DNA of 64,000 bases from a virus. Below the pieces are notes generated by a model. It saw only the letters and a list, made by a program, of their open reading frames with translations, did not search any database and was not told where the DNA came from. Location: the IMG/VR virus record IMGVR_UViG_3300020152_000002, positions 23,607 to 87,606 of that record. One strand, given 5' to 3'. Both the position numbers and the translations under genes were made by a program. Numbering within the stretch: position 1 is the first letter of the stretch; each line of letters opens with the position of its first letter. This document shows positions 1 to 10,509 of this stretch, one piece after another.

Positions 1-2
1 CT

Positions 3-107
3 CTTGAGGCGTCGCAGGCTTCGCGCGCCGTTCGCGGCGCTTTCGTCGCGTGGCGAGATCGGAACGGCTGGCGGTTCTACCGCAACGGCCGCCGCATCGC
101 CGTCTAA
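3..107 (+). CDS. 3' end of an early hypothetical protein (truncated by window)
   Basis: Open frame ...AWRDRNGWRFYRNGRRIAV ending at TAA 105-107, inside the 22-bp repeat. Confidence 0.55.
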   Translation, partial: LEASQASRAVRGAFVAWRDRNGWRFYRNGRRIAV

Positions 108-118
108 CCCTTCACACA
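97..118 (+). repeat. 22-bp direct repeat copy 1 TCGCCGTCTAACCCTTCACACA
   Basis: Exact second copy at 965-986; both include the upstream gene's TAA. Confidence 0.9.
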
Positions 119-145
119 ACCGGAACCGCGAAAGGAAACCGGACC

Positions 146-334
146 ATGAGCAAGAGCTTTCATTCCCGCCTTCGGGACGCGCTAGACGACGCGCATTGCG
201 GCGAAGGCCGCTTGAGCACGGTTGAGCACTATCGGCTTAAGCGCGCCATGCGCGAAGCCAATATGCGCGGCCGTCAGTTTCAGGACGCCGAAGAACTCGC
301 CGAGTTCATCGCAGGCGGGAGGCGCTTTCAATGA
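146..334 (+). CDS. early hypothetical protein
   Basis: AAAGGAAA RBS before ATG146; ATGA overlap with next gene. Confidence 0.75.
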   Translation: MSKSFHSRLRDALDDAHCGEGRLSTVEHYRLKRAMREANMRGRQFQDAEELAEFIAGGRRFQ

Positions 335-975
335 GGCGCGTCGGAACCTTGGCGGAGGAATACCGCCGCAACCGTCAAACCGGCGCTTCCGCGCTTACCG
401 CCTATCAATGGGCGAAGTCCGCGCGCGAAACGTCCGCGTTCTGGTATCGCGCCGAAGGCGTCAGCAAATACAAAACCAGCTTTTGCAACGCGGACGGCGC
501 GGAAGTTTGGGAGATCGAAAGCAAGTCCGGCGCTATCCGCGCGGAAATCGCCATCATGCCGGATTATGACGGCGGGTTAGACTTCGATCACGGAACGGAA
601 GATTACGCGAGCTTCCGCCGTTACTTCCGCGAAACTGCCAAACTGGGCAAACACGCGGCGCACGTCGCGGCCGTCAAAGCCTTGCGGCAGTATGAAGAAG
701 ACCAGAAAGGCGAGAACAACGGCAGTTGCTACGGCGTCGCCGTCCGCGTCTTTCACAACGTCCCGCGCTTAGAGGCTGGCGAGCCGATAGGCGAGGACTC
801 GCTTTGGGGTATCTGCGTCAACGACGACGCGGAAGGCGAGCGTTATCTTTGGGAATGCGCCGCCCAAGTCTACGCCGAAGCAACTAGCGGCCTTTGCCGC
901 AAGATCAGGGACGCGCGCCGCGAAGCGTTCCGCGCCATCATGGCGGAAGCCTTCGCGGCTAACTTCGCCGTCTAA
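331..975 (+). CDS. early hypothetical protein
   Basis: 214-aa ORF translationally coupled to the previous gene. Confidence 0.8.
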   Translation: MRRVGTLAEEYRRNRQTGASALTAYQWAKSARETSAFWYRAEGVSKYKTSFCNADGAEVWEIESKSGAIRAEIAIMPDYDGGLDFDHGTEDYASFRRYFRETAKLGKHAAHVAAVKALRQYEEDQKGENNGSCYGVAVRVFHNVPRLEAGEPIGEDSLWGICVNDDAEGERYLWECAAQVYAEATSGLCRKIRDARREAFRAIMAEAFAANFAV

Positions 976-986
976 CCCTTCACACA
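965..986 (+). repeat. 22-bp direct repeat copy 2
   Basis: Identical to 97-118. Confidence 0.9.
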
Positions 987-1012
987 GTCGAGACAGACAA
1001 GGAAACAAGCCA

Positions 1013-2440
1013 ATGGCTAAGGTCTTCAATAACAGCATGGTCGCGCACGTTTGGGCGCAAGGCGAACAGCCGTCCGGCCGTTCGCATAACGGCAACTTCT
1101 ACTTTGACGGCCGTATCCTCTACTCATACGGAAGTCACTTCGCGGTTGGCGTCCGCATGAACAACGCGCAAGCCGTCCTGAACTCGGATAGCTATTCGAT
1201 CAGCACGACGGGAATGCAAAGCGACGCCAGCCGCGCGACTATCCATTTCGAGACAGTCCGCGTTCCGAAGCTACAGGACATCGCGCGAGACCTTTCTTAC
1301 ATCGCCAATAACGGCGTGAAGGGCGGCCGAAGCGCGGACGCCGTGGCGGCCGTCATCCGGCATATCGAAACTCACGCGGCGGCGCTGCAATACAGGGCGC
1401 GCGGCGCTTGGGATTACAGCAAGTCGGAATATCCCGAAGCTGGCGAGGCGACGGCGGCCGAAACGCTCTTGCGGTTCTGCGGCATTCCGAAGGCGCGAGC
1501 CGCAGCCGCGATCAAGCGCGGACTGGCGAGCGCCGAAAAGCGCGCCAAGGCGGAAGCGGCTGATCAGCGGAAGCGCGACAAGGCGGAAGCCGTCGCCTTC
1601 GCGGACATGACGCCGAATGAGTTTGACGCGGTTATGGAGCGGCGTTTTCACGTCCGGCCGTTCAACGGCAACCGTTCAAACGACATCTATCAGGCGGAGG
1701 CTTTGCAGCGCGTCAGCAAGGCGCTTTTCCGCATGATCAAAACGGCGAAGGCGGAAAAGCTATCCGCCGCGCGCCTTGGCCGTTTGAAGGCGCATCGCGC
1801 GGGAGTTCTCGCCACGCTCAAAGCCTATAACGACGACGCGGCGGAATACGTCGCGCGGCAACACGCCGAACGCTTCGCCAACTGGGAAGCGCGCTACACG
1901 GCCGCGAAGGATGACGCCGAACGGCTCGCCGTCTGGCGGACAAACGGCGTCAGTTCGGCCGCCTATGCGGAAGGCTCGCCAGAGCGCGCCAAGCTAGAAG
2001 CGGCGGAAGCCGAAGGGCGCGCGCTGGATAGCGCCGACAGAATGGCGAAGGAACGCGAGCAACGCGAAGCGTGGTTGCGTGGCGAGGGTCCGGCGCGCGT
2101 GTATCTGTCGGGACCGAACGGGACGGCGCTAGTTCGCCGCTCGCCAGACGGCGAACGGCTGGAAACGTCGCAGGGCGCGGACGTGCCTTGGGATCACGCC
2201 GTCAAAGCCTTCCGCTTCATCCGTCTGTGTGTGGAGCGCGGCGAAGGCTTCAAGAGCAACGGCCGAACCGTCCGCGTCGGTCACTTCCGCGTGGATGAGA
2301 TCACGGCGGAAGGCGACATGCGCGCCGGTTGCCATCGCTTCTCTTGGGAAGCCATGCGCGAGCTTGCGGAGCGTGAAGGCGTCTTTGAGCTTCCGCCGTC
2401 TGCGGAGGCAGTCGAGACGCGCGAAGGCGTCGCGCATTGA
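1013..2440 (+). CDS. early hypothetical phage protein (N-terminal VAHVWA...YSYGSHF domain, helical middle, C-terminal ETSQGA..GCH domain)
   Basis: AAGGAAA RBS; 475-aa ORF; motifs I recognise from phage early proteins. Confidence 0.85.
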   Translation: MAKVFNNSMVAHVWAQGEQPSGRSHNGNFYFDGRILYSYGSHFAVGVRMNNAQAVLNSDSYSISTTGMQSDASRATIHFETVRVPKLQDIARDLSYIANNGVKGGRSADAVAAVIRHIETHAAALQYRARGAWDYSKSEYPEAGEATAAETLLRFCGIPKARAAAAIKRGLASAEKRAKAEAADQRKRDKAEAVAFADMTPNEFDAVMERRFHVRPFNGNRSNDIYQAEALQRVSKALFRMIKTAKAEKLSAARLGRLKAHRAGVLATLKAYNDDAAEYVARQHAERFANWEARYTAAKDDAERLAVWRTNGVSSAAYAEGSPERAKLEAAEAEGRALDSADRMAKEREQREAWLRGEGPARVYLSGPNGTALVRRSPDGERLETSQGADVPWDHAVKAFRFIRLCVERGEGFKSNGRTVRVGHFRVDEITAEGDMRAGCHRFSWEAMRELAEREGVFELPPSAEAVETREGVAH

Positions 2441-2634
2441 ACGTCTGTGACAACGCCAGACGCGACGCGCATCTAATGGCGAGGCGGGAACGTGACCGCC
2501 TCGCCATGCAAGCGACGCTTAAGCAGGCAAGGGCGGCCGTCCTAAGCAGCCGTCAGAACGCAGGGGTTAAGGGCGGGTTAATCGGCCTAGCCGTTGCGGT
2601 CATAACGTGGCCTTTTAGTCACATGAAGCAGTAA
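2437..2634 (+). CDS. small hypothetical protein with C-terminal hydrophobic segment
   Basis: TTGA overlap with upstream stop; GLIGLAVAVITWPF; start may instead be ATG2476. Confidence 0.5.
   Translation: MNVCDNARRDAHLMARRERDRLAMQATLKQARAAVLSSRQNAGVKGGLIGLAVAVITWPFSHMKQ
2567..2581. promoter_or_regulatory. CtrA-binding box TTAA-N7-TTAA
   Basis: TTAAgggcgggTTAA matches the alphaproteobacterial CtrA consensus; TTAA is rare in this GC-rich sequence. Confidence 0.7.
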
Positions 2635-2652
2635 GCCAGTAGAGGCAGAGTA

Positions 2653-2698
2653 GAGCGCAAGTAATCGCAGCCAATGAGCGAAGCGGTTACTTGCGTTC
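2653..2698 (+). terminator. long hairpin closing the early region
   Basis: GAGCGCAAGTAATCGC / GCGGTTACTTGCGTTC, 16-bp stem with 2 G-U pairs; no clear U-tract. Confidence 0.5.
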
Positions 2699-3031
2699 AT
2701 CTGTTCAATGTCAGTTGAGCACAAGTAAGAGGGAAGATGAGCCAAGCATTCAAAACCCGAATCCCCCAATGGCACAGTAGAGCGGGGTTCGGCCGGGCTC
2801 GACAGCGAATGTGTCTACGCAACCCGTAAAATAGTTCAAAAAGGATCGCCAAAAGTGCAAAACAAGGCAGTCCTGAATAAAAAGCATGTGTTCGCTGTAT
2901 TTTAATCGCAGAATGCCCCAAATCGCCCTAATAGACCGCCTTCGAGCGCAGATTTTTCAGAAATAGGAGCCGAAAAAGCTCCAAATGCGCCAATCTGAAT
3001 AAAATCCCCGCCTTGCCCGGCCCAAATCGCC

Positions 3032-3060
3032 TTGACGCCGCAGCGTCCGGCAAGCATTTT
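3032..3060 (+). promoter_or_regulatory. sigma70-like promoter, probably giving a leaderless terS mRNA
   Basis: TTGACG-N17-CATTTT, 6 nt before ATG3067; no SD. Confidence 0.5.
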
Positions 3061-3066
3061 CGGCGC

Positions 3067-3765
3067 ATGTCCGCTCTCGCCCTCCAATCCGACGACTACA
3101 TGCGCGTCGAACCGCTCGGCCCCGCCGAGAAGGCGGAGATCGTAGACGCGCTCTACAAGCACTTCTCGATGCAGAAGGTCGTCGAAGCCACAGGCTACGA
3201 TCTGCGGCGGATTATGACCGCCATCGACGAAGACCCGGAGTTCTCGAACGCCATGGCGCTCGCCGAACGGCACCTGTCGGTGATCGGTGAGGACGAGCTT
3301 AAGCGCCGCGCGATCCACGGGGTCGATAGCGTCGTGGTCGCCAACGGCCGCGTCGTCTATCAGGTCGTGGACGGCGTTCGCCGCCCGATGGTCGAGACCA
3401 AATACAGCGACGCGCTGCTCAAGACCTATCTCGAAGCCAACCGGCGCGACAAGTTCGGTGCCAAGCTCGAAGTGACCACCACGCACAAGGGCGTCATCGC
3501 CCTGCCTGCGTTCTCGCCCGAGATGATGCAGCTTCTCTTGGCCGATGCCAGAGGGGAGCGCGTCGAACTGATCGTGGATCAGGAGATGGACGCCGAGGAC
3601 AAGCCGGAAGTGATCGACGCCGAATACAGCGTCGTCGGGGAAGCCGCCAACACGGACGCCGAGTTCGAGCGCGCCGATGATGAGACGATCCGTCAGCGCG
3701 TCCGGGAGATGACCCGCGAGACGGTCCCGGAGTCGGCCACGGAAGACGGCTTCGACATCCTGTGA
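3067..3765 (+). CDS. terS: terminase small subunit
   Basis: ELKRRAIHG...YSDALLKTYLEANRRDKF motif; lies directly upstream of TerL. Confidence 0.8.
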   Translation: MSALALQSDDYMRVEPLGPAEKAEIVDALYKHFSMQKVVEATGYDLRRIMTAIDEDPEFSNAMALAERHLSVIGEDELKRRAIHGVDSVVVANGRVVYQVVDGVRRPMVETKYSDALLKTYLEANRRDKFGAKLEVTTTHKGVIALPAFSPEMMQLLLADARGERVELIVDQEMDAEDKPEVIDAEYSVVGEAANTDAEFERADDETIRQRVREMTRETVPESATEDGFDIL

Positions 3766-5294
3766 AAATCCGGGTCTCGCCAGAGCTATACGCCGCCTAT
3801 CAGGCTGCGAAGAAGGCGTTCGACAACGCCGCGTGGCGTCCAAACAGCGTCGCCCAGTGCCTCGCCATCAACTGTCAGGAGCCCGAGCTACTGCTTGAGG
3901 GCAACCGAGGCGGCGGCAAGACGATCACGCTGCTGATGACCTACGCCGTCTACGTCGATAAGGGGTTCGGCGCGGCGTGGCGCGGGATCATCTTCCGTAA
4001 CACCTACAAGGCGCTGGAAGACATCATCAACCAGTCCAAAAAAGTGTTCTGGCGCATCTGGCCTGACGCGACCTTCAACGAGACGGAGCGTCTGTGGCGC
4101 TTCCCGAACGGTGAAAGCCTCAAGTTCTCGCAGTTCGCAACTCCCGACGACTATAACACATGGCACGGTCAGGAGTTTCCCTTCATCGGATGGGAAGAAC
4201 TGACGAACTATCCGACCGACGCCTGCTATCGGTCGATGATGTCGTGTAACCGCTCTAGCTCGCCGGGCATTCCGAAGATCATCCGCGCGACGACCAACCC
4301 GTCCGGTCCCGGCAAGCGGTGGGTGAAGAACCGCTGGCAACTGCCGACCATGCGGAACCAGTGTCTCGTCGATCTCAAGGACGAGGACGGTTACGAAGTC
4401 CCGAACAGGATGTCTCTGCACTTCAAGTTCGAGGACAACCTTGATCTGGTGCGCGTGGACCCGAAATACATGTCGCGGGTGCGGCAGTCGGCGGCGAACG
4501 CCGAAATCCGCAAGGCGTGGGTGGAAGGCGACTGGAACTCGAAGTCGGGCGGGTTCTTCGACGAGTGCTTCGAGCCGTCGATCCACATGATCCCGAAGTT
4601 CGTCATCCCGGAGGGCTGGAAGCTGTTCCGGGCTCTCGACTGGGGCTACAACGCGCCCTACAGCTACGGCGTCTACGCCGAGTGCCCGGAAACCACCATC
4701 GTCGATCTCGAACCCGAGCGGAAGATCATCAACGGCGTCGCGCACGACATCCCGCGCCAGATGTTGTTCATCAGGGGCGACATCGTGCGGGTGTTCGAGG
4801 ACTACGGCTGGGTGCCGACCAGTGGTCAGAACAAAGGCGTCCGGTTGTCACCGGCAGCGGCGGCCGAACGGTTCAAGATGCTCGAAATGAAGTGGGGCAT
4901 CCATAAGCTGATCAAGGGCGGCGTCGCCGGGGTCGATCTCTGGAACACGCAGACCGACGACAACGCCCCGATCCACCAGTTCGAGCTACGCGATCTCGAC
5001 ATGGACAAGGCAGACGTGAGCCGGGGTAGCCGGAAAGGCGGCCTGATGACGCTCGTCTCCTACCTAGAGAACGCGGTGCCCAAGGCAGTAGACGGGATGC
5101 GTCTTCCGAGGGAGAACCCGGCGCTGTTCTTCATCGAAGCCAACAACGCGCAGGCTCTACGCATCCTCTCCGAGATCACACCCGACCCGGAGAACCCCGA
5201 TGACTTCCACAAGGACGCGGAAGACCATATCATCGACGAAATCCGCTACATTCTGTCCCGGCGGGACCAGTCGGTCAGGCAGCATCACGCCTGA
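3762..5294 (+). CDS. terL: terminase large subunit
   Basis: Walker A GNRGGGKT, Walker B FIGWEE, TTNPSG motif, nuclease ALDWGY and EDHIIDEIRY. Confidence 0.95.
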   Translation: MKIRVSPELYAAYQAAKKAFDNAAWRPNSVAQCLAINCQEPELLLEGNRGGGKTITLLMTYAVYVDKGFGAAWRGIIFRNTYKALEDIINQSKKVFWRIWPDATFNETERLWRFPNGESLKFSQFATPDDYNTWHGQEFPFIGWEELTNYPTDACYRSMMSCNRSSSPGIPKIIRATTNPSGPGKRWVKNRWQLPTMRNQCLVDLKDEDGYEVPNRMSLHFKFEDNLDLVRVDPKYMSRVRQSAANAEIRKAWVEGDWNSKSGGFFDECFEPSIHMIPKFVIPEGWKLFRALDWGYNAPYSYGVYAECPETTIVDLEPERKIINGVAHDIPRQMLFIRGDIVRVFEDYGWVPTSGQNKGVRLSPAAAAERFKMLEMKWGIHKLIKGGVAGVDLWNTQTDDNAPIHQFELRDLDMDKADVSRGSRKGGLMTLVSYLENAVPKAVDGMRLPRENPALFFIEANNAQALRILSEITPDPENPDDFHKDAEDHIIDEIRYILSRRDQSVRQHHA

Positions 5295-5310
5295 TCAGCG
5301 TGACGGCGGC

Positions 5311-5340
5311 TTGAAAACCCATCCACCCCTCGCGTAGGCT
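5311..5340 (+). promoter_or_regulatory. late promoter (18-bp spacer)
   Basis: TTGAAA-N18-TAGGCT, 8 nt before the portal ATG. Confidence 0.6.
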
Positions 5341-5348
5341 CCCCGCCC

Positions 5349-6908
5349 ATGGCCCGACAACCCAAGTCCGTCGTAGACAATGCCCGGAGGCAGGCCCGCC
5401 AGACCAAGGCGGCGCTGGACCCCTCCACGCCTTCGCTCGACTACAAGGCGCTGCAAGGCGACTGGAACCTGATCTCGACGGTGCTGGGCGGCACGAAGTC
5501 GATGCGCGCGGCCGGGAAGTCCCTGCTGCCGCAGCACGAAGGCGAGAGCGATCTGCGCTACAAGGATCGCCTGAACAGCGCCACCTTCACGAACTACACG
5601 GCGCTGACGCTCGATCACTGGTGCGGCAAGCCGTTCTCGAAGCCCGCCGTCATCTCGAAGGACAGCGACCCCGACATCATCAAACTAGCGGCCGACATCG
5701 ACCTGTGTGGCTCCGAACTGACGGTGGTCCTGAAAGACTGGTTCACGAAGGGCATGGCGAAGCGCCGTGCCTACTGCCTCGTCGAGTATCCGAAGGTGCC
5801 GGATCACATTCGGGCTCGCGGCGTGACCTTGGCCGACGAACAGCGTCTCAATCTGCGCCCTTACTGGGTGATCATCCCGGCGGAGGCGATGATCGCGCCC
5901 CGCAAGGAGCGGGTGAACGGCGAAGACATCTTCACGAACGTCCGCTTCTACGACAACGAGACCTACTACGACGGTTTCGAGGAAAAGGTGCGGGTCCGCA
6001 TCCGCGAGATCGAACGTGCGGTCCTCGAACGCGACGAGTTCGGCGACGAAGTGAGCGTCGTCGTGCGGACGCGCCTTCACGTCAAGAAGGATCGCAACGA
6101 GTGGGACACGAAGGACTGGGAAACGGTCGATGCGCCGGATAACCTGATCACGCTCGTCGAGTTCGACACCGGCAAGCTCGAACTGCTCGATCTCGCCTAC
6201 CTGAACATCACGCACTGGCAGTCGGCGTCGGATCAACGCAACTGCCTGACCACCGCGCGCTTCCCGATCCTCGCGGCCAAGGGCGTCGCGGCGGATACGG
6301 TCGTGACCATCGGCCCCTACGCCTTCCTCGCGTCGAAGGACTCGAACAGCGAGTTCTACTACGTCGAGCACGGAGGCGCGGCGCTGGACGCCGGGCAGAC
6401 CGATCTCGACAAGCTCACCGAAGACATGGCGCTCTACGGGGCGGAGATGCTGAAACAGCGTCCCGACCGGGAGACCGCAACATCTCGGGTTCTGGACCAA
6501 GCAGAAAACACAGCCCCCTTGCAGGTGCATGTGTTCAACTTCATCAGCGCCGTCAACATGGCGCTGTATTACACCGCTCGTTGGCTGGACAAGCCCGAGA
6601 ACACGGTGGCGCGCATCGAGATGGATACTGACTTTGCGCTGTCGGCGGAAGCGACGCAAAAAGTCGATCACTTGAAGGAACTTCGCAAGTCGGGGGACAT
6701 TTCACGCAAGCAACTTCTCACTGGCATGAAAGAGGCCAAGGCTCTGCCCGACAGCTTCGACATCACCGCCAATGAGTCGGAGCTTGACGCGGAAGCCGAT
6801 GCCAAGGCCACAAAGGCGGCGGACGCGGCGAAGAAGCTGGCAGCCGCCAGTCCACCCAAACCCGCTCCGGGTAGTCCGGGCGGGAAGACCCCGGAGAAAG
6901 ACCAATGA
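5349..6908 (+). CDS. portal protein (DUF4055-like)
   Basis: LGGTKSMRAAG..LLP..Y..RL..A.F.NY and LLDLAYLNITHWQSASD motifs; follows TerL. Confidence 0.92.
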   Translation: MARQPKSVVDNARRQARQTKAALDPSTPSLDYKALQGDWNLISTVLGGTKSMRAAGKSLLPQHEGESDLRYKDRLNSATFTNYTALTLDHWCGKPFSKPAVISKDSDPDIIKLAADIDLCGSELTVVLKDWFTKGMAKRRAYCLVEYPKVPDHIRARGVTLADEQRLNLRPYWVIIPAEAMIAPRKERVNGEDIFTNVRFYDNETYYDGFEEKVRVRIREIERAVLERDEFGDEVSVVVRTRLHVKKDRNEWDTKDWETVDAPDNLITLVEFDTGKLELLDLAYLNITHWQSASDQRNCLTTARFPILAAKGVAADTVVTIGPYAFLASKDSNSEFYYVEHGGAALDAGQTDLDKLTEDMALYGAEMLKQRPDRETATSRVLDQAENTAPLQVHVFNFISAVNMALYYTARWLDKPENTVARIEMDTDFALSAEATQKVDHLKELRKSGDISRKQLLTGMKEAKALPDSFDITANESELDAEADAKATKAADAAKKLAAASPPKPAPGSPGGKTPEKDQ

Positions 6909-7588
6909 ACAAGACCCCCTACGTCGGCATGACTGTCGTCGTCCATGATCGCGGCCGTCCGCAGGCCGGGCGCGATGTCCACCCCGCCATCATCACGCAG
7001 GTCGTGAACGAAGGTGCGGGCACCATCGCCGTCCGCGTCCTGCCCGAACAGGGCGTGGACTACCCGATCAAGGCCATCAACTACATGCACGGCGACGCCT
7101 ACATGGAGGGCCTGTCGTGGCGCTGGCCCGAAGACCCGTCCAAGGTCCAGACCGGCGCTGGCGAGGCCCGCACCCCGGCTCCGCAGGACGTGGCGGCCCC
7201 GACGCCGGGCGACCACGAGCCCCGCACCGTCGCCGGGAAGGAAGTCGCCAAGCCGGGCGACGCTCCGCAGGCCGGTCAGTCCAGCGACGTGACGGGCGAA
7301 GGCTCGCTCGCGGCGCAGGACGGCAACGCCGACGCGGCGGAAGGGGAGGGCGGCGACGATCCGTTCGCCAACCTGACCGACACCCCGCAGGACGGCAAGA
7401 AGCCCGCTGACGGTGCCGACAGCGCCTCGGTCGCCAACGCGGCCGGGAACGTCGCCGACACCGCCGCCGGAGCCGACGCCAACACGTCCGACGCGACGAA
7501 GGGCAGCCTGACGGCCGCCTCGGAAGGCGCGCAGAAGGCGGGCGACAAGGCCGCCGACAAGAAGGACGACGGCAAGAAGGCCAAGTAA
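6905..7588 (+). CDS. hypothetical protein (folded N-terminus, disordered Ala/Asp-rich tail)
   Basis: GGAGAAAG RBS, strong codon bias. Confidence 0.8.
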   Translation: MNKTPYVGMTVVVHDRGRPQAGRDVHPAIITQVVNEGAGTIAVRVLPEQGVDYPIKAINYMHGDAYMEGLSWRWPEDPSKVQTGAGEARTPAPQDVAAPTPGDHEPRTVAGKEVAKPGDAPQAGQSSDVTGEGSLAAQDGNADAAEGEGGDDPFANLTDTPQDGKKPADGADSASVANAAGNVADTAAGADANTSDATKGSLTAASEGAQKAGDKAADKKDDGKKAK

Positions 7589-7599
7589 GCGTCTCGGAA

Positions 7600-7627
7600 G
7601 GCCGTCCCGGTTAGCGCCGGGACGGCC
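7600..7627 (+). terminator. hairpin
   Basis: GGCCGTCCCGG/CCGGGACGGCC perfect 11-bp stem, no U tail. Confidence 0.5.
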
Positions 7628-7651
7628 GACCACCCTCACGAGGACATCACC

Positions 7652-7840
7652 ATGGACCGTCTGGTTCGCATCATCTTTCTCATCGTTCTTCTCGCCGTCA
7701 TCGCCCTGTGTATCTGGCTACCGTCGCTGCTGCCGATGAACTGGCGCGCGGTCATCGGGTGGATCACGCTGTCCGGGGTCGGTATCGCGGCGGTGATCCT
7801 TCTCGTCGCGTGGAGCTACGCGACAGCCATGCGGTCATAG
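7652..7840 (+). CDS. small 2-TM membrane protein (holin-like)
   Basis: GAGGA RBS; two hydrophobic helices; immediately upstream of the peptidase. Confidence 0.6.
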   Translation: MDRLVRIIFLIVLLAVIALCIWLPSLLPMNWRAVIGWITLSGVGIAAVILLVAWSYATAMRS

Positions 7841-7849
7841 GAGCCGACC

Positions 7850-8455
7850 ATGAACCTGAACCCATTCGCAAACTGGAAAGCCCCCGGCGCGGCGAACGCC
7901 GTCCCCGGTGAAGGCCAGAAGGTCAATCCGGCCGCGCCGTTCGCAGCGGCCTATTGGATCGCGTGGGCGCTGCTGCAAGTCGGCACCCGTGAGATCGTCG
8001 GCCCGCGCCACTCCCCCGTCATCATGGGCTGGATCAGGGAACTCGGCGCGAAGGCGCTGGGCATTCAGGTCAACGACGACGAGACGCCGTGGTGCGGCAC
8101 ATTCGCCGCCATGGTGATGAAGATGGCGAGGCTGTCCATTCCGGCCATCGCCGTGAGAGCGTCCCAGTGGGGCAGGGCTGGAAACTGGGGCCGCGAACTG
8201 CTGGCACCGCGTCCGGGCTGCATCATGGTCTTCACGCGCAACGGCGGCGGTCACGTCGGCTTCTACATGGGGGAGACCCGGACGCACTTCCGCATTCTCG
8301 GCGGCAATCAGTCCAACAGCGTCAGCGAGACGTGGATCGCCAAGGATCGCTTGGCCGAAGGTGGGATGCGCTGGCCCAAGGGTGTGCCCCTGCCCGCCGC
8401 GCATCGCATCCATCTCAAGAGCGACGGCAAGCCCGCTTCGACCAACGAAGCGTAA
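7850..8455 (+). CDS. NlpC/P60-CHAP-type peptidoglycan peptidase (TIGR02594-like), probable endolysin
   Basis: DETPWCGTF catalytic Cys, GGGHVGFY, LGGNQSNSV. Confidence 0.88.
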   Translation: MNLNPFANWKAPGAANAVPGEGQKVNPAAPFAAAYWIAWALLQVGTREIVGPRHSPVIMGWIRELGAKALGIQVNDDETPWCGTFAAMVMKMARLSIPAIAVRASQWGRAGNWGRELLAPRPGCIMVFTRNGGGHVGFYMGETRTHFRILGGNQSNSVSETWIAKDRLAEGGMRWPKGVPLPAAHRIHLKSDGKPASTNEA

Positions 8456-8469
8456 AAGCCCTCTCGACA

Positions 8470-8499
8470 GATGCGGCCCTAGTCGTCTAGGGTCGCATC
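8470..8499 (+). terminator. hairpin after the peptidase gene
   Basis: GATGCGGCCCTAG/CTAGGGTCGCATC. Confidence 0.55.
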
Positions 8500-8552
8500 A
8501 CTTCATTCACCACCCCCGTTACGCACGGTTCAGATCAGGGTAAGCACTCCCC

Positions 8553-9374
8553 ATGGAAGACTTCTACTTCGAGGACAACGCGGAACTCCCGGAGGCGGAG
8601 TTCGAGAGCAAAGTCCCGGCGGACTTCCGCTTCGCCTACACGAAGGGCGACGGCGGCACCTACAAGCTGAACGACCAATACGCCGCCGCCGCCAAGCTGA
8701 TCGACGGCCGGGGTCGGACGCTCAAGCAGGCGAAGGCCACGAACCAGTCGGTCGGCCTCGAAAGCAAGCAGCGCCGCGAAACCCTCGAAAAGTGGGCCGC
8801 CGAGACCGGCTTCGAGTCGCCGGAAGCGGCGAAGGAAGCCATCGCCGCCATGCAGGAGAAGATCAACTCCAAGTCGGCGATCAAGCCGGAGGAAGTTCGC
8901 GCCGCCATCGAGAAGGAGTTCACCGGCAAGCTCGAAGCGTCCGAGAAGAAGGCGGAAGCCATGTTCTCGACGCTGGAAAAGCACCTGCGCGACAAGGACG
9001 CCCTGTCGGCCATCGCCGAGCACAAGGGCAACGCGAAGCTGCTGATGCCGCTGATCCTCGCGCAGACCAAGGTCGTGCAGGACGAAGACACCGGGGAGTA
9101 TTTCACCGCTGTCCTGAACGCGAAGGGCGAAGTCCGCGCCGGAGCGGACGGCGGCCCGCTGTCCATCAGCAAGCTCGTCGCCGAGATGAAGGAAGACAAG
9201 GACTTGGCGTCCGCCTTCGAGGGCTCGCAGAAGAACGGTGGCGGCACCGATCCGAAGCAGCAGCAACAGCGCGGCCCGCATCAGCCGACCAACCAGCAGC
9301 GTCGGGAAGGCGGCGAAGATCGCGCCCAGCGCGGCATCAGCAAGATCAGCGCGGGGCTCGCGCAACGCCGCTGA
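8553..9374 (+). CDS. capsid scaffolding protein
   Basis: Charged coiled coil directly upstream of the capsid gene; C-terminal KISAGL helix. Confidence 0.8.
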   Translation: MEDFYFEDNAELPEAEFESKVPADFRFAYTKGDGGTYKLNDQYAAAAKLIDGRGRTLKQAKATNQSVGLESKQRRETLEKWAAETGFESPEAAKEAIAAMQEKINSKSAIKPEEVRAAIEKEFTGKLEASEKKAEAMFSTLEKHLRDKDALSAIAEHKGNAKLLMPLILAQTKVVQDEDTGEYFTAVLNAKGEVRAGADGGPLSISKLVAEMKEDKDLASAFEGSQKNGGGTDPKQQQQRGPHQPTNQQRREGGEDRAQRGISKISAGLAQRR

Positions 9375-9409
9375 TCGAGGCTTGACGGCAAAATCGTTAA
9401 CGAGCCGAC

Positions 9410-9472
9410 TTGAAAACGGCCGTTAACCATGACAAGGATCAGGGCGCGCTCACAACGCGCCCTGTTTCGTTT
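9410..9472 (+). promoter_or_regulatory. capsid late promoter with CtrA half-site and adjacent terminator hairpin
   Basis: TTGAAA(9410)-N18-AAGGAT; TTAACCAT at 9423-9430; CAGGGCGCG/CGCGCCCTG followed by TTTCGTTT. Confidence 0.6.
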
Positions 9473-9473
9473 C

Positions 9474-9523
9474 CGGGGGGATACCCGGCGCAGGGAGCGG
9501 GACGGCACGGGGGGATACCCGGC
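9474..9523 (+). repeat. 16-nt direct repeat CGGGGGGATACCCGGC x2 in the capsid leader
   Basis: Exact copies at 9474-9489 and 9508-9523. Confidence 0.9.
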
Positions 9524-9567
9524 ATGTCCACAAGAGCGGTGAAAACCCCTTTCTGTGGAGACATCCC

Positions 9568-10509
9568 ATGGCGTCCGTGACGCTCGAAGAAGCCGGTAAG
9601 CTGGCGGAAGACCAACTCGTTCAAGGCGTGATCGAGGAAATCATCGACTCGAACCCCATGTTCGAGATTTTCCCGTTCGAGGGCATCGACGGCAACTCGC
9701 TGGCCTTCAACCGCGAGAACACGCTGGGCGACGTGCAGGTGCTCGGCGTCGGCGGCACCATCACCGCCAAGAACCCCGCGACGTTCACCCGCGTCAACGC
9801 CAACCTGACCACGATCCTCGGCGACGCCGAAGTCAACGGCCTCATTCAGGCCACCCGGTCGGGCAACGTGGACCAGAAGGCGCAGCAGATCGCGTCCAAG
9901 GCCAAGTCGGCGGCCCGCAAGTATCAGGACATGATGATCAACGGCACCGGCGTCGGTGACGAGTTCGTCGGCCTGCGCGGTCTGGTCGCCAACAGCCAGA
10001 AGGTCAACGCCAAGACGGCGGGCGACGACACGAACGGCGGCGTCCTGACGTTCGAGCTTCTCGACGAACTGCTGGACATGATCAAGGACAAGGACAGCCG
10101 TCCCGACTTCCTGATGATGTCGGCGCGTGAACGCCGTCGCGTTCAGCAACTCCTGCGCGCCATGGGCGGTGCGTCTCCGGCCGATGTCTACACGATGCCG
10201 TCCGGCGAGCAGATCATCGCCTACAACAACGTCCCCATCTTCATCAACGACTACATCCCGACGAACCTGACGCGCGGCAACCGTTCGGACGCCTCGGTCA
10301 TCTTCGCCGGGACGTGGGACGACGGCTCGCTGACCCACGGCATCTCGGGCCTGACCGCCCGGAACGCGGCGGGCATCAGCATCGTGGAAGTCGGCCAGTC
10401 CGAGACCAAGGACGAGGAAATCACCCGCGTCCGCTGGTATTGCGGGATGGCGAACTTCTCGCAGAAGGGCCTCGCCATGCTGCAATACGTCGTGCCGCCG
10501 ACCAGCTAA
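9568..10509 (+). CDS. major capsid protein (YuA-like, HK97 fold)
   Basis: MASVTL.E..KL..D.L..GVIE...PFEGIDGNSLAFNRE signature; GGAGA RBS; strong codon bias. Confidence 0.93.
   Translation: MASVTLEEAGKLAEDQLVQGVIEEIIDSNPMFEIFPFEGIDGNSLAFNRENTLGDVQVLGVGGTITAKNPATFTRVNANLTTILGDAEVNGLIQATRSGNVDQKAQQIASKAKSAARKYQDMMINGTGVGDEFVGLRGLVANSQKVNAKTAGDDTNGGVLTFELLDELLDMIKDKDSRPDFLMMSARERRRVQQLLRAMGGASPADVYTMPSGEQIIAYNNVPIFINDYIPTNLTRGNRSDASVIFAGTWDDGSLTHGISGLTARNAAGISIVEVGQSETKDEEITRVRWYCGMANFSQKGLAMLQYVVPPTS

Follow-up and report, generated by a model that had tools for sequence, protein, structure and literature searches.

We analysed a 64,000-nucleotide stretch of phage DNA (the window), bases 23607–87606 of the 87,606-base genome in IMG/VR record IMGVR_UViG_3300020152_000002, whose left end is occupied by a zone free of the word CACC and its complement GGTG. 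The first base of the window is not a genome end, since the window begins at an arbitrary point, 23.6 kb along a circularly assembled record; positions to the left of it carry a minus sign, and L003 denotes the locus at genome 17607–27606. The genome itself comes from a soil metagenome; it shares about 80% identity with each of five siphophages isolated on Brevundimonas, namely, Delta, Leszy, Poludnitsa, Fanboy, and BabaJaga. The common layout is, from left to right, leftward small genes, a non-coding gap, a rightward cassette of small genes, a spacer, and then terS, terL, portal, and structural genes. The cassette here consists of seven open reading frames (ORFs) of 59, 81, 56, 62, 214, 475, and 65 amino acids (aa). 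The gap is 1,237 bp of non-coding DNA with arrays of TTAA-type boxes; its counterpart in Delta measures 1,312 bp and is crowded with CtrA-binding sites, and CtrA was shown to bind it and to repress a small gene inside it (Mascolo et al., PMC9437464). The features, in window coordinates, are as follows.

1–3270, no strand: the portion of the CACC/GGTG-free zone that falls in the window; in full, the zone spans genome 23120–26876, window −486 to 3270
1–3082, no strand: window part of a block of about double sequencing depth, a putative direct terminal repeat (contig depths), extending left over the gap to about −1770 to −1530
Immediately upstream of the window: ORF1 (59 aa, membrane-like) and ORF2 (81 aa), from the ORF list and synteny with DELTA_1–4
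1–107, plus strand: 3′ part of ORF3 (56 aa, L003 5937–6107), from the ORF list and synteny with DELTA_1–4; no Pfam or PHROG match
146–334, plus strand: ORF4 (62 aa), in size and position as DELTA_5; no family match
331–975, plus strand: ORF5 (214 aa), the most variable part of the cassette (12–49% identity to relatives); no family match
1013–2440, plus strand: ORF6 (475 aa), conserved phage protein, phrog_7247 (E 1.4e-57), homologue of phiCbK gp008
2437–2634, plus strand: ORF7 (65 aa), membrane-like, counterpart of DELTA_8
2635–3066, no strand: conserved, AT-richer non-coding spacer before terS (430 bp, from the alignment), containing the right edge of the double-depth block
3067–3765, plus strand: terS, small terminase subunit (phrog_4044, E 7.5e-17; annotation of DELTA_9)
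3271–3289, no strand: first sites beyond the zone, CACC at 3271 and GGTG at 3279 and 3286 (direct count; alignment columns 882–900)

Direct counting finds 342 CACC and 322 GGTG in the window, the first CACC at 3271 and the first GGTG at 3279, followed by the next at 3286. Positions 1–3270 contain neither word, against 35.8 predicted from the density over the remaining window. The preliminary description of this sequence had claimed the absence of both words from 1–3270, a first site at 3271 with more within 20 bp, and a few dozen sites expected from base composition, and all of this holds; where it had allowed for sites at the expected rate, the count gives zero. The true empty stretch is longer, namely a run of 3,758 bp (genome 23119–26877, window −487 to 3271), from codon 4 of ORF1 to 204 bp into terS. 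For the whole zone and both strands, base composition predicts 42 sites, dinucleotide frequencies predict 17.8, and a maximal-order Markov model predicts 7.7.

The whole genome contains 878 CACC/GGTG sites, and the second-longest gap between them is 953 bp. When gaps are ranked for every 3-, 4-, and 5-mer that has 60 or more sites in the genome, both strands pooled, the CACC/GGTG gap is the most extreme (log10 P about −13.4, vs −6.8 for the runner-up word). Outside the zone, 877 sites are observed and 983 expected from base composition; hence, the word is not avoided genome-wide, and the ban is regional. The next-ranked gaps, those of CCSGG, GCCCG, ACGAG, GTCCA, and GGGCC/GGCCC, lie on the same stretch. 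First occurrences in the window are at 2793 (CCGGG), 3016 (CCCGG), 3019 (GGCCC), and 7108 (GGGCC), in line with the earlier report that these words are missing from 1–2640; CGGCCG, reported as frequent, has 14 copies in 1–3270.

The contribution of coding constraints was assessed by shuffling synonymous codons among the seven cassette ORFs in 2,000 trials, which keeps the proteins and the codon pool of the zone. The permuted sequences contain 10.6 ± 2.4 CACC/GGTG, with a minimum of 3, while one is observed. Since none of the 2,000 permutations is as low as this, the absence of CACC/GGTG is independent of codon and amino-acid usage, which the preliminary description had named as a possible alternative cause. 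The other words behave similarly, with means of 15.1 for GCCCG/CGGGC, 10.8 for GGGCC/GGCCC, and 6.8 for CCSGG, and none observed. The codon pool itself is also shifted: GTG, ACC, CAC, GGT, and CCC are scarcer in the cassette than in terS, terL, and portal, with shares in the zone of 10% vs 36% for GTG, 21% vs 44% for ACC, and 4% vs 36% for CCC, and the G+C content at third codon positions is 0.75 in the zone vs 0.84 in these three genes. This shift itself points toward avoidance of CACC/GGTG.

In the relatives, the same block is depleted less strongly. The cassette has one CACC/GGTG here and 11–15 in the five isolates, for which 26–32 are expected from their flanks; the more distant metagenomic relative L011 (69% ORF6 identity) has five cassette sites vs about 29 expected. 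For the isolates, the depletion under codon permutation is weakly to clearly significant (p 0.004–0.06). As the relatives show weaker depletion, with 5–15 sites, in the same block, the ban is a graded family trait, complete only in this phage. The alignment reveals single-base changes that remove sites here that all five relatives keep, e.g., ACC to ACA (synonymous), GTG to GTC in terS, and several changes in the spacer. Just beyond the zone the opposite is seen: CAC-C at codon 3 of ORF1 and GGTG at 3279 and 3286 are present here and missing in the five relatives, while CACC at 3271 is conserved in all of them.

The longest gaps of the relatives fall in the same block and involve different words, AGATC, GCAGC, TCGAA, CACCC, and GGCAC. 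Strong depletion is seen for ACCC and AGATC in Leszy and Poludnitsa, with CACCC and GGCAC in addition in Poludnitsa; for GCAGC, TCGA(A), and AGATC in BabaJaga, Fanboy, and Delta; and for CACCC in L011. The longest gaps of these words extend over both the intergenic gap and the cassette. Such lineage-specific word gaps are what host-specific arms races would produce. Leszy (L004) and BabaJaga (L007), both from one sewage source, are 97–100% identical from terS to portal and only 8–50% identical in the cassette; therefore, the gap-plus-cassette block is exchanged or rewritten as a unit. Of all parts of these genomes, the cassette changes most.

A separate pattern is shown by ACGAG/CTCGT, which has 0, 1, 0, 0, 1, and 1 copies in the cassettes of six Delta-like phages, vs about 8–10 expected in each, and normal density elsewhere in the six genomes.

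The missing words could also be explained by the compositional dialect of a mobile module, that is, of a recombining block with a restricted vocabulary, where zero is the tail of an approximately three-fold lower baseline and no reader of the word exists. The block is indeed a recombination hot spot; it is poor in GTG, ACC, CCC, and CTG codons and rich in GCG, CGC, and GAA; its codon usage is unlike that of terS, terL, and portal; many unrelated degenerate words expected 12–20 times are missing from the zone as well, while CGCG, GCGC, and GCGGAA are enriched two- to six-fold. The terminal repeat of phiCbK (L019, 1–10287) is similar: compared with the next 40 kb, it has 71 vs 132 CACC, 3 vs 30 CACCA/TGGTG, 37 vs 96 GATC, and 1 vs 22 CCGATC. 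However, the permutation test draws on this very codon pool and still expects the banned words in numbers that were never as low as observed; by our arithmetic, the Poisson probability of zero given the 11–15 sites of the relatives is about 1e-5 to 1e-6; and a dialect explains neither the point changes that delete sites at otherwise conserved positions, nor the sites gained just beyond the zone, nor the codon bias pointing away from these words. Hence, we consider a mere dialect improbable.

Selective removal of the word from DNA that enters the cell first, the reading that we prefer, concerns a block whose extent is outlined by sequencing depth. Depth was taken as one mean per contig, with the contigs of the source run placed on L003, so that the resolution is that of contigs and read starts are not visible.

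L003 1–769: mean depth 229.9, left flank
L003 762–3967: mean depth 212.8, left flank
L003 3941–4818: mean depth 400, block, mixed contig
L003 4789–5254: mean depth 687.6, block, 46% G+C
L003 5428–9082: mean depth 489.6, block, one 3,655-bp contig (window −572 to 3082)
L003 9057–9489: mean depth 257.6, right flank
L003 9460 onwards: mean depth 262.7, right flank

Over the gap and the cassette, the depth is thus about double that of either flank (213–263). The right edge of the block lies in the spacer before terS, at about L003 8650–9082; arithmetic on the mixed contig 3941–4818 places the left edge at about L003 4230–4470, near the left end of the gap. There is no second contig of similar depth on the flanks, the sole variant there having a depth of 11.8 (a contig with 49 differences, in place of L003 9057–9489). 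In runs X2–X4, the depth over the block is under 8. The phiCbK repeat of 10.3 kb was likewise discovered from coverage, which was raised 2.2-fold over a block with abrupt edges (Gill et al., PMC3556154).

Three other accounts of the block or its edges were rejected. A headful series starting at a pac site predicts a fuzzy far edge and less than double depth, but the next contig, L003 9057–9489, is already at flank depth. The 13-nt repeat AATCTGAATAAAA (L003 4753 and 8992) does not mark the repeat edges, as contig 3941–4818 would then be about 250 deep, not 400. The IMG/VR label "direct terminal repeats" on this record means overlapping contig ends and a closed assembly, and gives no evidence for a physical repeat. 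The 13-nt word as such occurs in exact form once in the spacer (window 2992–3004) and once in the gap (L003 4753–4765); the spacer copy is almost conserved in the five isolates, which have one A fewer in the A-run.

The cassette protein that links this block to a known terminal repeat is ORF6. Its C-terminal part is 71–75% identical at the DNA level to a gene within the terminal repeats of 13 phiCbK-like records; the phiCbK counterpart is gp008 (4070–5122, within the terminal repeat 1–10287). A protein search yields 346 homologues, the nearest of which include P0002 (87% identity) and P0017. A single-protein scan of IMG/VR for ORF6 relatives gave none; profile scans gave four loci in IMG/VR and four in JGI metagenomes, with one contig common to both sets, two loci being the repeat copies of CcrBL10, and the others short. 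Of the seven cassette proteins, none matches Pfam, and only ORF6 matches PHROG, in a family without an assigned function (phrog_7247). The AlphaFold model of ORF6 has a predicted local distance difference test score (pLDDT) of 84. Structure searches covered the whole model; on this basis, Foldseek gave no match among solved structures at E ≤ 0.001, and VIA-align found generic helical bundles only (best Z 7.7, residues 180–285). In BFVD the model matches only uncharacterised viral proteins, the best being a phiCbK protein (E 2.4e-11).

The preliminary description had taken the left end of the window for first-injected DNA or part of a terminal repeat. This agrees with the approximately double depth (489.6 vs 213–263), the adjoining CtrA-box gap, and the ORF6 homologue in the phiCbK repeat; it agrees less well with the 13 CACC/GGTG sites in the gap, within the same depth block, and with the published circular permutation of Delta.

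The explanation that we tentatively favour, while holding it somewhat short of probable, is that the zone is T5-like first-entering DNA purged of a host-defence site. In this explanation, and with the same reservation, the zone may belong to the right-hand copy of a direct terminal repeat of about 4.2–4.9 kb and form its outer, gene-bearing part. The putative repeat would comprise the CtrA-box gap, the seven-gene early cassette, and the spacer before terS, and it would be the first DNA to enter the cell, with the cassette end leading, as in T5 and its relatives. While it alone is exposed, the repeat would be open to attack by a host defence that targets DNA and recognises a short, asymmetric word with CACC/GGTG in it; selection would then strip every copy from it, mostly by synonymous or conservative changes. 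The remaining 84 kb could retain about 880 copies owing to later entry or to protection by early products. The same pressure, weaker and on partly other words, would act in every relative and drive the fast cassette turnover. A first-entering purged repeat would account for the regional ban, the sharp return to normal density with gained sites at the edge, the lineage-specific words, and the rapid turnover of the cassette. What is directly observed is the absence of the word, its independence of codons, the substitutions that delete sites, the doubled depth, and the relationship of ORF6 to a gene in the phiCbK repeat; the physical ends, the entry order, the defence, and a protective role of the cassette proteins are inferred.

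The general strategy of the phage is consistent with this explanation. Of the 64 six-bp palindromes, 50 are absent here, vs 297 of all 4,096 hexamers, and 46 of 64 are absent in Delta; GTAC, AATT, and CTCAG do not occur in the whole genome, and CCWGG occurs once. The three main DNA methyltransferase families and TGT/DpdA have no match in this genome record. Since palindromes are avoided and none of these modification genes is found, the phage seems to meet restriction by lacking sites. A four-base asymmetric word is not clearable from 87 kb of coding DNA, but it is clearable from 3.7 kb.

Apart from this, ACCTC/GAGGT has 3 copies in the whole genome vs 90 expected, and some palindromes are tolerated: CGGCCG (182 copies), GCGCGC, CGCGCG, CCATGG, and TGATCA.

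Several observations weigh against the proposed first-entering, purged repeat. The gap, though part of the same double-depth block, holds 13 CACC/GGTG in 1.24 kb; therefore, the ban is limited to the cassette side of the putative repeat, which makes sense only with entry that begins at the cassette end and pauses close to the gap. The zone extends about 190 bp beyond the depth edge, which may be due to chance, as about two sites are expected there. The depth evidence comes from a single metagenome run, probably the source of the assembly, and a second phage with exactly this block and with flanks less than 85% alike may produce the same signal. Mascolo et al. interpret the AflII/PciI digest of Delta as circular permutation (PMC9437464); on the other hand, Gill et al. 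warn that collapsed repeats mimic circular permutation (PMC3556154), and a collapsed repeat could, as judged from the description of the gel, yield the same fused band in the Delta digest. In the paper of Friedrich et al., the words PhageTerm, termini, terminal repeat, and packaging have no occurrences. From the side of the sequence, the odd vocabulary of the zone, with its many other missing words, and the low maximal-order Markov expectation count in the same direction, as does the strand asymmetry of depletion in the isolates, a hint of a reader that acts on RNA or depends on orientation. In the Pfam, PHROG, and ORF6 structure searches, none of the cassette proteins is similar to known anti-restriction proteins. 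We know of no restriction enzyme whose entire site is CACC, and the literature on methylome motifs of Caulobacter and Brevundimonas has, by title, nothing on CACC.

The asymmetry just mentioned is one argument for a constraint at the level of RNA or transcription. Early transcripts would then avoid GGUG, and here CACC too, because of a host endoribonuclease (an abortive-infection or toxin–antitoxin toxin) or because of pairing with the CACC of the 16S ribosomal RNA 3′ end. In the isolates, sense GGTG in the cassettes totals 14 vs 65.6 expected, a four- to six-fold depletion, while CACC, at 51 vs 91.4, is depleted less than two-fold. The gap is also polar: in L003 4271–5513 (window −1729 to −487), ten GGTG on the top strand at L003 4271–4704, about 23 per kb, are followed by four CACC on the top strand. 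The left part of the gap shows an approximately four-fold enrichment of GGTG, with all 10 sites in the same orientation within 434 bp. In all seven phages, a run of GGTG on top in the left gap is followed by CACC on top, each phage having one or two exceptions; in the flanks, the two orientations are mixed. If transcription diverges from the gap, both runs would be sense CACC. This order could stem from a DNA reader that, like Type III systems, depends on orientation, from a constraint on the RNA of divergent early transcripts, or from a cis signal composed of GGTG copies. An RNA-level constraint would need no fixed order of DNA entry and agrees with the published circular permutation of Delta. 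However, both orientations are purged here (0–1 vs about 21 and 0 vs about 22 expected) and in L011 (2 vs 16.5 and 4 vs 15.3); the ban extends over the 430-bp non-coding spacer; the other banned words, CCSGG and GGGCC/GGCCC, are banned on both strands; and several gap sites, by our reading, lie upstream of a rightward promoter-like element and so would be untranscribed. This element, TTGACT...TAGAAC near L003 5343, we take to be promoter-like by our own reading against a Caulobacter consensus; a scan of L003 4200–9300 with the sigma-70 consensus gave no promoter-like sites. To our knowledge, no ribonuclease has a GGUG or CACC site. On balance, a constraint on RNA seems unlikely as the cause of the ban.

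A 66-bp piece of the promoter-proximal gap, in L003 5314–5381 (window −686 to −619), is missing from a minor variant (depth 16.2) present in the source run.

We also considered that the reader of the word is one of the phage's own factors, either in a context-specific DNA modification kept off early genes transcribed by the host, or as a packaging or entry-arrest cis signal made of the oriented GGTG of the gap, whose copies would have to be kept out of the adjoining DNA. The enrichment and uniform orientation of GGTG in the left gap, retained in seven phages, speak for such a factor. Against it, the modification families listed above are without matches; a relative encodes, by annotation, a ThyX-like synthase, i.e., ordinary dTMP synthesis; Delta DNA is cut by AflII and PciI (PMC9437464); the near-total avoidance of palindromes argues for unprotected DNA; and with about 880 copies elsewhere, clearing 3.7 kb cannot make a four-base cis signal unique. 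Such a factor is, in our view, distinctly improbable. Avoidance of Chi sites, put forward earlier as a variant involving AddAB, was rejected, since Chi protects DNA.

For the preferred reading, a purge of DNA that enters first, the closest known system is T5. Phages of this type are restricted only if sites fall in the first-step-transfer repeat, and the terminal repeat of T5 and BF23 carries pre-early genes, its inner end being a long non-coding, repeat-rich region with boxes for host proteins (both according to PMC10644984). As in T5, BF23, and other Tequintavirus members, small early genes mostly without known function are followed here by a long non-coding, box-rich border, with DnaA boxes there and CtrA boxes here; as in T5, sites are tolerated elsewhere but not in the segment, and that layout is matched here by the doubled depth, by the cassette with its gap, and by the zone free of the motif. 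There are also differences. In the Pfam, PHROG, and BFVD searches, the cassette proteins resemble the pre-early proteins of T5 neither in sequence nor in fold; the repeat would be about 4.2–4.9 kb vs about 10 kb; two-step entry, which in T5 depends on the pre-early proteins A1/A2, is here an analogy only; a four-base asymmetric word and several others are banned here, while in T5 these are single six-base sites; and the phage lineage and the host clade (Caulobacterales) are unrelated.

Autographiviridae (Murciavirus with Mme2I, and T7) are similar in that only motifs in the first-entering, variable early region count; they differ in being podophages with transcription-driven entry and Type I defence, while this phage is a siphophage. 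According to PMC12455610, a motif in their leading region decides Type I sensitivity, and this region is highly variable and encodes anti-defence genes.

The 10.3-kb repeat of phiCbK shares with the block described here the ORF6 homologue gp008, CtrA-binding sites, CtrA-regulated promoters, and discovery from approximately 2.2-fold coverage. In phiCbK, the gp005 promoter is CtrA-activated (PMC9437464), and gp008 lies downstream of it. On the other hand, the phiCbK repeat shows depletion of CACC, not its absence, and phiCbK, apart from this unrelated, has a genome about 2.5 times larger. Genome-wide avoidance of palindromes, another known phenomenon, is shared by the present genome to an extreme degree; the CACC/GGTG ban differs from it in being regional. 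Evasion of Type III systems by strand bias, as in T7 with EcoP15I (PMC10644984), would leave all remaining copies of an asymmetric site in one orientation, without inverted pairs. The isolates' cassettes have 51 CACC to 14 GGTG vs 91 to 66 expected, and the order of sites is polar in all seven phages; these phages share ancestry, and there are exceptions. In the passages and titles consulted on Delta-like and phiCbK-like phages, we found no report of site avoidance. We know of no Type III enzyme for these hosts. Thus, site avoidance confined to first-entering DNA is of a known kind, while this case adds a new phage lineage and host clade, a complete four-base ban over 3.8 kb, the co-banned and lineage-specific words, the link to CtrA, and a likely correction to the type of genome end published for Delta.

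A more far-reaching version, which we consider rather unlikely as a whole, combines these elements. Delta-like Brevundimonas phages would not be circularly permuted, and would have a terminal repeat of about 4.2–4.9 kb and two-step, T5-like entry; the CtrA-box gap would serve as a cell-cycle sensor and an entry-arrest or regulatory border; and CACC/GGTG would be the core of a Type III-like, orientation-dependent defence widespread in Caulobacterales, which would have shaped both the cassette purge and the polar order of sites in the seven phages.

If the preferred reading of a purged, first-entering repeat is true, this would be a second, unrelated phage lineage with the T5 strategy of a site-free first-entering repeat, and the published circular permutation of the type phage Delta would need revision. 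The fast-changing small cassette genes would then be candidates for new anti-defence proteins, in hosts where CtrA controls that DNA. The analysis also offers concrete words for comparison with the methylomes and defence systems of Brevundimonas and Caulobacter, namely, CACC/GGTG, CCSGG, and GGGCC, as well as GCAGC and AGATC in the relatives. Regional word bans may flag leading ends and early genes of uncultured phages straight from sequence.

The cassette also contains a 41-nt repeat with 78% identity between its copies, at window 97–137 and 965–1005, beginning with TCGCCGTCTAACCCTTCACACA; one copy covers the ORF3 stop codon and the ORF4 leader, the other the ORF5 stop codon and the ORF6 leader.

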